Below are positions 3,686 to 8,545 of a DNA stretch of 64,000 nucleotides, piece by piece (within the stretch, counting starts at the first letter, position 1; each line of letters begins with the position of its first letter). Position numbers and translations under genes: made by a program. Origin of the DNA: Eledone cirrhosa (taxonomy: Eukaryota); assembly GCA_964016885.1 (NCBI GenBank), contig OZ024745.1, positions 69,564,001 to 69,628,000 of the forward strand. Reading direction: 5' to 3'. The notes below the pieces were generated by a model, which worked only from the letters and a program-made list of their open reading frames with translations, did no database searches and was not told the DNA's origin.

Positions 3686-3909
3686 CCATACATACACACA
3701 CACACATATATATACATACACACATACAAACATATTTTTTATACCCTTTATTATTTCCTTACCTTATAAAATTATATGTTTTTTCACAAAAAAGTATTCT
3801 GTCTCTTATATATTCCATGTGCCATTACCAACCTCAATTTTCTCTATAACCTTCGTTTTGTGTAGAAAATTACACTTTTCATATATACTAACCTACGCAA
3901 ATCCGGAAA

Positions 3910-6900
3910 ATGGCACTGGAACAAGACAACACAACTTCAAACTCCAATATAAATGAGGAAATCCTGAAAATCATAAAAGAGATAATGGAAAACTCACCAT
4001 TCTGAAAAAAAAACAGGATATACCCCAAACCACCACACCGACTGACAACCAAATTTATTTAAATGTTCAAAACGTATGCAACTCCATCGAAAAACTTATG
4101 AATACCAACACAGAACAAACGACATTGCTCCATATCAAAAACCAAATGGGACACCTCTGGAAAAAAACATCTAAAAACCAGAAAATTCACTTTCTGGAAT
4201 ATGATAAAAAACCTCAACAAAGCTGGAATTTACCAAAAATGGATTAACTCAACTCCGATAGTTTTACCACGTAAATTCCAAATAAAGCATATTACAAACG
4301 AACCTGAACCAGAAAGAAAACTCCGTGAACAAATGTCACTCAACAGGATAAACATGGAAATAGAACTCCTAAAATTAAGGGCCACCTCAAACGAGCAAGA
4401 GTATAAGGATACTGATAAAAATATGGAGGAAGAATGCACTAAAAAGGCCGAGGGAACAACCCTACAAAATTTAATAAAATCGTGGAAACAGGACTGCGAG
4501 AATGCAGAAATTATTTCCCTTAAACGGTGGGAAAAATCCGAAAACTGGTTCCTCATATATGAAGAAGACTTTAAAAGGACGCACCAAACAGGTAACCCCT
4601 TTATAAAGCATTTGAACATAACAAGAACTACAACAGACACATTTACACCACCAAACCCAACACACACTAACCACAGGCACATCCCCCACCAACACAAACC
4701 AAATACGGCCAACTACACCAAAAGAAACACACCCAACCACCACAACACAGGTTTCCGTAGAAATGCCCCCTACATAAACCAACGACGAAATAACATAGAT
4801 CCAACTCACAACACACACACCACATTCCCCAGAAGAAATCCACCCAGACCACTTGAAATCACAACAGAACTTACCCACAACCACACCAGACATCACCCTC
4901 AATCCAACAAAAGACAACCCCCCAACCTCAACACTCTGTACCACAGAAATAACGCACCCAGACCACATGAACCAACAACAGAACCCTTGCTCATCAACAA
5001 CCACAACACATACCACCCCCACCATCACATTCACCCTCATGAAACTACAAGCTACAGACCCACACGCAACAGACCAACAAAATATAATCACACACAAAAC
5101 TACATTCCTTTTTTAGGGAAAAGCCTGAAATACCAGAATACTCGATGGCCCCCCCCCCCCCCCCCTCAGGAGAAACCAAAAATAATCAACCTCTCAAAGA
5201 CACCTCTAACCAACACACAAATCAGCATTTTAAGTAAGGGCCTGAAATTTACACCTGCACCACGTAAACCAAACTTCCCCGAAATGAAGGATGACATCAT
5301 GGAATACTGCTGAAAGCTGCGACTAACGGAATTCTTCCACAACGACACCAACACTGAAGACGAATCACTGGTTAGAAATAAAAGCAATTTCTGCCCACAA
5401 AAGGGAAGAAATAAAGCACTGGACACGTACTGCGAACACATCACCAACTTTCCCTATGAAAAAATTACAAATAAACACATGAAATCAAACCTATCTACAC
5501 ACGAATGGGAAGAATTATTCACACTTAGAAACAACCCTGAGATAACTATCAAAGAAGCCGATAAAGGCAGTACTGTTGTCATTATGAATACGGACTACTA
5601 TAGGACCCTCGCACTTAACATTTTAGAAAACAACACATACTATGAAAAAACAGAAAACTACAAACACACCAAAACAATGGGGAACCTTTTGACCTTACTG
5701 AATAAATACCGCAACAGCTTAACCACAAAAGAGTTTAACTATATAAGTCACTTCAAATGCAATACAAGCTCTTTTTACGGCTTACCGAAACTCCACAAAT
5801 GTAAACCCATAAACGATGCATGTGACACCTCAACCAACAATTACATTGAACTAACACCACCAGAAGACCTAAAACTCAGGCCAATTATAGCAGGCCCTAC
5901 ATGTGAAACCCACAGACTTAGCAACTTTCTGGACATCCTACTGAAACCCTTTCTACAACATATACAGTGCTACATACGAGATGACCTTGACATGCTGAAA
6001 CACCTCCCTAAAACAGTAAGTGCAAATACAATTCTTGTCTCCTTTGACGTAATAAACCTCTACACAAACATACCCCACAACTATGGAATAACAGCAGTCC
6101 AATACTGGCTTAACACACACCCATCAGAAATACCGACACGCATCAACACGGATTTTATCACTGACGGACTCCGCTTTATCCTACAAAATAACTACTTCAC
6201 ATTCAATGGTTCAACATACAGACAATTATCAGGTACGGCAATGGGCACGAAAGTAGCACCCACATATGCCAACTTAGTCATGGGATTCCATGAACAACAA
6301 ATATACAGTCAATCCCTTCTCTTATTTGGAGACTCTTTCCACACACACCTCAAAGCCAATTGGAAAAGATATCTAGACGACTGCTTTATCCTATGGCAAG
6401 AAGACATGAACTCACTTACTACGTTTAAAAACATGATAAACAACATAGATAATAACATACAATTCACAATGGAATCCAATCCTAAGGAATTAGCCTTCTT
6501 GGATATTCTCATCTCTGTAATAGACGGGAAAGTAGATACAGATATATTCTATAAACCCACAGATTCCAAGCAATACCTCTTTTTCACATCAAGTCACCCA
6601 AAACATACAAAACTTAACATTCCTTACAATTTGGCCAAACGTATATGTACCATAGTATCAGATCCACCTAAACGGGAGCAAAGACTAAAGGAACTAAAAG
6701 ACACCCTTATCTTAAGAGCCTTTCCACTTGAAATAATCAACAATGGAATAGACAGGGCAAAACACCTAAATCCCCATCAACTTAACAATCCAAAACAGAA
6801 AACCACACTCAACACCCTGCCATATGTATCCACTTTCAACCCCAGAAATACCGAAATGTTTGATCCTCTACACAAAAACCTCCCCATCCTACTTAAAGAT

Positions 6901-7431
6901 GTAAAAATGAAGTCTATTCTTGAAACACACAAGATCCTTAAAAGTAAAAGACAACCCAAATCACTTAAACGCATTCTCACTGGACCAAATATACCCAAAC
7001 CAATCCTCAACCCTACAGTTACCAAATGTGGTAGAACAAACTGTGGAACGTGCCTCTACCTCACTGAAGGACAAACATTTACATTCAAAGATGGCCAAAC
7101 ATTTACATTAAAAAACAATTTCACCTGCAACTTGGAGAACTTGATTTACGCAATAACTTGCGGTGGCTGCAAACACAACTACATAGGACAGACGGGCACC
7201 TAATTACGCAAAAGAATGACCATCCACCATCAACAAATCCGGGACGCTAACACAAGAAAAATCCCCTTGAGCAGCCATATTGCGAACTGCGCAGGAATGA
7301 CACTACCCAACTTTAAAATCTTCCCCTTCTACAAGTGCTCAGATTCGTTCACACAGCAACAAAGAATAAACAAAGAAAATCTATTCCTTAACAAATTTAA
7401 ACCAAAACTAAACGGGTTATCACACCAATAG
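3910..7431 (+). pseudogene. PLE ORF: reverse transcriptase + GIY-YIG endonuclease (Neptune-type), disrupted
   Basis: Motifs LSKGLKFTP, KEADKG, FYGLPKLHK, LRPII, SFDVINLYTNIP, GTAMGTKVAPTYANL, RYLDD, CGRTNCGTC and LIYAITC..C..NYIGQT. In-frame stops at 5311 and 7201 and frameshifts near the N-terminus. Confidence 0.92.
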
Positions 7432-7883
7432 AATTGTCATAAAATATAAACACACATACGCACGGAATCACTACTATTAAAGACCAGAGACCAATTCTGT
7501 AGAATCAGGTTTATTCGTTGACAGACCATGCCTTTGTGTGACCAACACATCCATGTTAAACCCTGCACGTGCACACACATATATCTATATATATATGCGC
7601 ACACAGAATTCACCACTGTCGGTTGCGGGGCCCAATCTACATGAAGAACTCAATGTGATCAGAATGACTTGTATTTTAATTTCACTGTCCCTTCTTATAT
7701 TATGAAAAAAATATATGTGTATGTATGTATATATATATATATTTGGAGGCCATTTCTCTGTGTGTGGGTGTATGTATGTGTATATGTGTGTGTGTGTGTA
7801 TGTGTGTGCATGTGGATGTATGTATTGTGTGTGCGTGTGTGTGTGTGTGTATGTATGTGTGTATCTGGATGTATGCGTATGTG

Positions 7884-7914
<31 letters not shown>

Positions 7915-8087
7915 ATATATGTGTGTGTATGTGTATATATATATGTGTGTGTGTGTGTGTATGTTTGTATGTGTGTATATATATATGTGTGTGTGTGTAT
8001 GTATGTGTGGGTGTGTGTGTATGTGTATATATGTGTGTGTGTGTGTATGTGTGTATGTATATGTATGTGTGTGTGTGTGTATGTGTG

Positions 8088-8130
<43 letters not shown>

Positions 8131-8497
8131 GTGTGGTATATGTATATGTATGTATGTGTGGATGAAGGTATGTGTGTATATATAGGTGTAAGGGCACTAA
8201 ATCCCTTTCTATCACGCTCCACTCTCCTACCCACCACAGGAAGATATATGTATGTATATTGCTTCCACCCCCTCACTGACCAGCAGCTGGCCAACTGACC
8301 ATTGCCAAATCTAACCTTTATAAAATAACCCACACCCCAAATAACTTCTCATTCACTACCAGAAAGGGACACAGCAGTCAACTTGTTGTTGCTACCTAGA
8401 TGAAAACTACTATGAAATCCCACAATGAATTTTATACTTGAATTTTCAAATCTCAAATTTTAACTCTTCGTATTATTAATTTTTCTTAATATTAATC

Positions 8498-8545
8498 AAC
8501 ATTTGAAAAGATGGCTTTTGCAGACCCATCGAAACCGGTCATTTT
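8498..8545 (+). ncRNA. Variant hammerhead ribozyme (U3-A8 core) in the PLE 3' terminal repeat
   Basis: aacat-TTGAAAA(8503-8509)-gatgg/ccatc stem II-GAAA-CCGG-TC(8539-8540)-atttt. Stem III is the palindrome ACCGGT; stem I is weak. Confidence 0.6.

Follow-up and report, generated by a model that had tools for sequence, protein, structure and literature searches.

The window, that is, the whole 64-kb stretch of Eledone cirrhosa DNA analysed here, contains a defective retroelement. Judged by its Neptune/Nematis architecture, it is a Neptune-type Penelope-like element (PLE), the clade being assigned from this architecture rather than from an RT tree. Positions within the element were numbered from the predicted hammerhead cut: +1 is the first base after the cut (window positions 8541 and 3734), and -1 is residue C17. 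The terminal repeat +1..+154 is referred to as R; an arm is a single cDNA-derived segment. The features of the locus are listed in Table 1. The two direct repeats (3734-3887 and 8541-8694) share 97% identity. The inverted arm matches 8152-8652 at 96% over 2906-3406, and then consists of simple repeats up to 3733. The pLTR, the inverted 5'-truncated copy, a 30-40 nt tail and a microsatellite target are all present in the element. The initial annotation had placed the start of the direct repeat at the base following the predicted cut. This placement holds with an ambiguity of one base, since the A at 3734, as read from the sequence, is compatible with both arms. The idea that the 3' repeat came from another subfamily was dropped; most of the differences in the 3' R of this locus are private (Logan contigs, four runs).

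Table 1. Features of the Neptune-type element in the window.
Feature	Position	Strand	Remarks
Inverted 5'-truncated arm	2906-3733	-	3' end R+112 joined to (GA)n flank; runs through intact hammerhead motif into simple-repeat 3' UTR
Minimal type I hammerhead motif, U3-A8 core	3018-3055	-	Predicted cut between 3018 and 3017
Head-to-head junction, inverted arm/direct arm	3733-3734		Direct arm from +1, 1-nt ambiguity
5' copy of R (+1..+154)	3734-3887	+	112/112 identical to R of inverted arm
Broken single ORF	3910-7431	+	N-terminal region, RT (RVT_1, DKG motif), CX4CX2C linker, C-terminal GIY-YIG-type endonuclease with CCHH
3' UTR with internal (TG/TA)n simple repeats	7432-8502	+	
Minimal type I hammerhead motif, U3-A8 core, palindromic ACCGGT, GUC triplet	8503-8540	+	Predicted cut between 8540 and 8541
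Predicted competing 11-bp hairpin	8506-8547	+	-35..-25 pairs with -4..+7; predicted to sequester core and cut site
3' copy of R	8541-8694	+	Ends at +154 in (TA)n flank
'Tail' between two fixed 3' ends	8653-8694	+	R+113..+154

The ORF starts with the ATG at R+177 and is interrupted by stops at 4003, 4060, 4099, 5311 and 7201. The domain scan of the element ORF gave an RVT_1 match slightly below the cut-off (E=7e-7), and the RT motif IYAITCGGCKHNYIGQT is present. Close homologs contain both RVT_1 and GIY-YIG domains in 3/3 cases scanned. An RT followed by a C-terminal GIY-YIG endonuclease in one ORF is the arrangement of C-terminal EN+ Penelope-like elements, although the ORF is broken in the window copy. 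The endonuclease residues CGGC, IHH and SSH that belong to this definition were also found. The RT-EN linker KCGRTNCGTC corresponds to CX2-5CxxC, a type common to Neptune and Nematis.

A second broken PLE is located at 9716-11837 on the + strand, with its terminal repeat at 12788-12969. Its RWK and DKT motifs, together with a CxCX5C linker at the C terminus, are features given for the Hydra clade. Its repeat contains a hammerhead-like motif (CTGATGA...GAAA-TGCGCA-T) in which stem II begins with an A-U pair. Two arms of this repeat form a perfect head-to-head palindrome at 2086-2418 (centre about 2253), which shows the insertion architecture of the Neptune-type element in a further family of PLEs.

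Both motif copies of the Neptune-type element read TTGAAAA-GATGG/C(C/T)ATC-GAA-ACCGGT-C, and the UUGAAAA-core hammerhead claimed by the initial annotation for both terminal repeats was found at both places. In the + copy, the core TTGAAAA (8503-8509) begins with U3 at 8503, and is followed by stem II (GATGG 8510-8514 with CCATC 8526-8530), GAA (8531-8533), ACCGGT (8534-8539), and C17 at 8540. The - copy has U3 at 3055 and C17 at 3018; its stem II strand CTATC forms one G-U pair. Searching the 64-kb window with a minimal-hammerhead descriptor that required G10.1-C11.1 returned two matches only, which are these motifs. The Rfam search of positions 1-14000 (E<=5) returned no hammerhead family, and its matches were simple-repeat miRNA noise. 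Minimal type I hammerheads are characterized by a stem II with G10.1-C11.1 (here GATGG/CCATC) and a palindromic 15.1-16.1 segment (ACCGGT); both are present. The core boxes have a Watson-Crick 3-8 pair, GAAA, and U16.1-H17, as in this type. Stem I is weak, with two contiguous base pairs, a mismatch, and two further pairs, against the 4-5 bp or so expected for minimal type I. A helix I of 2 bp is known from the D. virilis hammerhead, and poor cleavage has been published for minimal hammerheads. Instead of the hammerhead, folding predicts a competing 11-bp hairpin as the structure of lowest energy (8506-8516 paired with 8537-8547, -9.0 kcal/mol). Dimer folding predicted -5.9 kcal/mol for the active dimer and -24.1 kcal/mol for the best dimer fold, both calculated without tertiary terms.

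The U3-A8 core is fixed in the family. U3 and A8 were found in 180/180 copy contexts and TTGAAAA in 175/180, some contexts being the same copy seen in overlapping loci; a CTGA core was absent from all 180. The expectation that the family consensus is U3-A8 rather than CTGA was therefore borne out. A descriptor search of 123 related loci from other organisms gave 15 distinct motifs: 11 C3-G8, 3 U3-A8, and 1 U3-G8. The Watson-Crick 3-8 pair was kept in 14 of the 15, while a similar descriptor gave zero matches in reversed sequences. This alternation among relatives agrees with the proposal that U3-A8 compensates for C3-G8. The 3-8 covariation is real, because U3-A8 is invariant in the family, C3-G8 and U3-A8 both occur among relatives, and a second U3-A8 family exists. 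This second hammerhead family occurs in the same genome, at L009 (+2914, -672) and L238 (-1748). Its stem II (GCAG/CTGC) is predicted to fold well; the ACCGGT palindrome is shared with the first family, and the triplet is GUA. Like the C3-G8 families of this genome, it is predicted to fold without the competing hairpin, and it may serve as a natural control for the competing-hairpin idea. More hammerhead-like motifs were seen in the flanks of L004, L021, L024, L159 and L181 (four C3-G8, and one U3-A8 without stem I). Contigs from bacterial MAGs and from symbiont assemblies also contain PLE relatives (L334-L377); these are most likely host contamination. Activity of U3-A8 dimers may already have been described by Lunse et al. 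in 2017. The variant itself is not new: Cervera and de la Pena (PMC4209133) published it in 2014 for Penelope-like elements, and the available text of that paper gives about 1,300 hits for a U3-A8 minimal hammerhead in PLEs of S. mansoni.

The 3.0-Gb genome contains 2616 exact matches to the R anchor, and about 165 ORF-start candidates. The first 100 anchor matches, of which 98 arms are distinct by context, were used as an unselected sample. Among these 98 arms, 46 end at about +105..115, 44 end at +154, and 8 run on into the ORF. The 3' ends grade into microsatellites, either (CT)n or (TA)n. The two fixed 3' ends match the pair of start sites flanking the 'tail' in the accessible part of Frangieh et al. 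(PMC11167929).

The initial annotation further proposed that the cut exactly defines the 5' end of the element. Such routine cleavage looks true at the window locus and at 23 others. An exact-match pattern with two foreign bases in front, which excludes some fronts and so gives a lower bound, found at least 29 arms starting at +1 in 24 loci, or about 1% of arms against the 2616 anchor matches. These loci comprise 16 short head-to-head insertions, 5 joined to (TA)n, 2 internal indels, and the window locus. However, the motif is reached by 80/98 unselected arms, none of which ends at +1 (0/98), and 29 of the 42 distinct ORF-bearing arms read through the cut. The arm counts refute routine 5'-end definition as a rule, and cleavage that regularly fixes the template 5' end for this family is very improbable. 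Even at the window locus, the inverted arm was copied through the uncut motif.

A minority of junctions nevertheless lies at or just behind the cut. With the window locus excluded, 3/41 ORF-bearing arms end at +1..+3 (p=0.0008 vs uniform over 505 nt), and 4/41 end at +1..+8 (p=0.0014 vs uniform over 505 nt). Of short head-to-head insertions, 52 loci were found and 50 were analysed, giving 100 arm ends. Here 48/100 ends fall at +1..+8 and 4 at -8..-1; 13 are at +1 and 26 at +6..+8. Chance lengthening of the T run by A/T-rich partners inflates the count at +1. Both arms end at +1 or higher in 36/50 loci. Point changes close to the junction upset the parsing of two loci (L129 and L222), whose arms nevertheless all end at +1 or higher. 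Head-to-head joins show short microhomology or filler. One short-type and one long-type 3' end are combined in 48/50 loci, which supports two start sites priming the two arms of the inverted insertion. The number of loci with the same geometry was 35 for +1..+29, 9 for +32..+60, 20 for -68..-40, and 5 for -29..-1. Anchor coverage was 30/80 arms for +1..+29, 67/80 for +32..+60, and 72/80 for -68..-40. After correction for coverage, we infer roughly 75-95 short head-to-head loci, or about 4-5% of arms, and the unselected sample (4/98) agrees with this estimate. In that sample, 30-nt bins showed no step (6, 5, 0 and 5 arms for +1..30, +31..60, -30..-1 and -60..-31). The predicted pile-up of 5' junctions is thus upheld in part: ends are over-represented at the cut or just behind it, but not at +1 among the 98 unselected arms. 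A search of the main texts of open-access papers found no report of junctions piling up where PLE hammerheads are cut.

The excess might reflect sequence preference only, with the ATTTTTTATA stretch being a favoured joining or nicking site whose nearness to the cut is coincidental. A/T microhomology with (TA)n, or a TA/ATT preference of the endonuclease, was proposed as the basis; an ATT preference is reported for the Poseidon endonuclease in the available text of PMC11167929. Junction ends are A/T-richer than background (2.98 vs 2.51 of 4 nt), junctions are also frequent at the ATTAAT palindromes around -48, and ends joined to (AT)n are scattered. In the latter search, 100 of the 131 matches, judged by eye, showed no clear peak, with about 3/24 events at +1. 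However, +1..+29 has the lowest supply of microhomology (10 pairs >=3 nt, vs 68, 96 and 28) and a lower A+T than both control windows, yet it has the most junctions. Sequence preference alone is therefore an unlikely explanation. Slippage at the U6 run alone was also rejected, since a U6 run of the same length at +46..+51 does not attract junctions in this way. The ATTAAT centre at about -48 is shared by five independent-looking perfect palindromic junctions (G000 C1:84268730, C1:97486166, C2:70326076, C15:24498624 and C28:75223343). These joins are loop-less and so favour annealing of two cDNAs over snap-back.

Insertions and deletions near the motif were also located. All 14 indel matches close to the motif are at the cut or just behind it. 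Of the 11 insertion matches in -25..+10, 8 are at the cut and none is in -25..-3. At one locus, a 9-nt G-rich filler lies in both arms exactly between C17 and +1. The other insertions at the cut are five ATC, which may be one lineage or slippage, and one ATTCATC; the remaining three are duplications from -2, +2..+5 and +6. The deletions in this interval (3/3) end at -2..+5.

A more serious rival involves no cleavage. The RT would stall at RNA structure, either the 11-bp hairpin or an ACCGGU dimer helix from -2, and the stalled cDNAs would be joined or snap back. Stalling is a serious rival because the predicted barrier peaks close to the observed junction peaks: within -70..+62 it is highest at +8 (-8.3), +7 (-7.3), +11, +1 (-6.9) and +6 (-6.4 kcal/mol). 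The first G-C pair of the hairpin sits at -1, and the hairpin has a predicted probability of 0.95 in a 71-nt fragment, although 0.31 is predicted in a 151-nt context and 0.05 in a 261-nt one. Stem II complementarity (-15/-31) is exploited at some junctions, which indicates that fold-backs occur. What weakens the rival is that hairpins between -335 and -31 with the same or a greater predicted strength draw no junction excess (13/57 vs 23% background, p=0.58), in a set of mostly other junction types. The filler placed exactly between C17 and +1, at one locus, also better fits two RNA ends. Taken together, stalling is possible rather than probable. A hairpin stall would nonetheless predict nearly the same positions, and the inverted arm of the window locus passed the uncut motif; the single junction at 3734 cannot serve as the fossil proof of cleavage that the initial annotation saw in it.

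Our preferred reading is that the U3-A8 motif of the terminal repeat cleaves a small share of templates, estimated at 4-5%, probably with protein assistance, and that the 3734 junction records one such cut. A probability of about 0.5 is assigned to it. The excess of ORF-bearing arm ends, the excess at +1..+8 in the short loci, the indels at the cut and the invariant core speak for occasional cleavage. Against it, ends at +6..+8 (26 arms) outnumber those at +1 (13), and the predicted stability of the active dimer is much below that of the best dimer fold. In the proposed mechanism, an RT dimer would use the two start sites to prime one cDNA per target strand. The competing hairpin and the weak stem I might hold the ribozyme mostly off, allowing the cDNA to extend beyond one unit and rebuild the terminal repeat. 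Cleavage would occur in a dimer formed via ACCGGU, probably with protein help. After a cut, the cDNA would run off at +1 and might lose a few bases by trimming before joining. Head-to-head joining of the two cDNA 3' ends would rely on 0-3 nt of microhomology or on a templated filler. At the window locus, the long arm would derive from cut RNA and the inverted arm from uncut RNA.

A bolder form of occasional cleavage is offered tentatively, as a conjecture we would not bet on. The junctions of this young family might document quantitatively, in vivo, how a U3-A8 hammerhead silenced by a built-in anti-ribozyme hairpin fires on about 1/20 templates. On firing, the two cDNAs made by the RT dimer might run off at the cut and be fused into palindromic mini-insertions of 200-270 bp, so that cleavage would abort rather than enable transposition. 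In vivo cleavage by minimal hammerheads in animal PLEs, and its purpose, are stated as open in papers on these elements; the Eledone family offers a measurable genomic signal on this question.

Known systems were compared with the Eledone element. As far as the available text of Craig et al. 2021 (PMC8557442) describes the Neptune and Nematis clades, they share its RT, CX2-5CxxC linker, CCHH GIY-YIG endonuclease and DKG motif, and also the pLTR with a hammerhead, the inverted 5'-truncated copy, the tail and the (TA)n target; no architectural difference was found against that text. The Cercyon-family PLEs of Schistosoma mansoni, in the accessible part of PMC4209133, have the same U3-A8 in their terminal repeats, G10.1-C11.1, a palindromic helix III, and a predicted action as dimers. 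In contrast to Cercyon, the Eledone motif has a 5-bp stem II, no unpaired base before stem II, only two contiguous stem I pairs and a predicted competing hairpin, and it belongs to a Neptune-type element whose arms, about 2,600 in number, are nearly identical. The accessible part of the Cercyon study does not analyse junctions at the cut in the genome, whereas they were counted here.

Poseidon PAc of Anolis carolinensis (Frangieh et al. 2024, PMC11167929) was compared through the available portion of its description. Protein-assisted cleavage was shown there, as were two RT start sites, which bound a tail of 30-40 nt as in the Eledone element. Both target strands are cut and extended, the hammerhead lies upstream of the start sites, and the main template is uncut RNA; in these respects the two systems are alike. 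Unlike the Eledone element, PAc lacks a Zn-finger linker and has a C3-G8 core that overlaps the start of its ORF. Initiation in PAc is reported as non-homologous to the target, whereas the Eledone 3' ends lie in CT or TA stretches matching the flanking microsatellite. According to the same portion of the text, the PAc ribozyme depends on protein, cleavage of PAc RNA is dispensable in vitro and RNA-seq found no ends at the cut; in the Eledone element, by contrast, genomic junctions are enriched near the cut.
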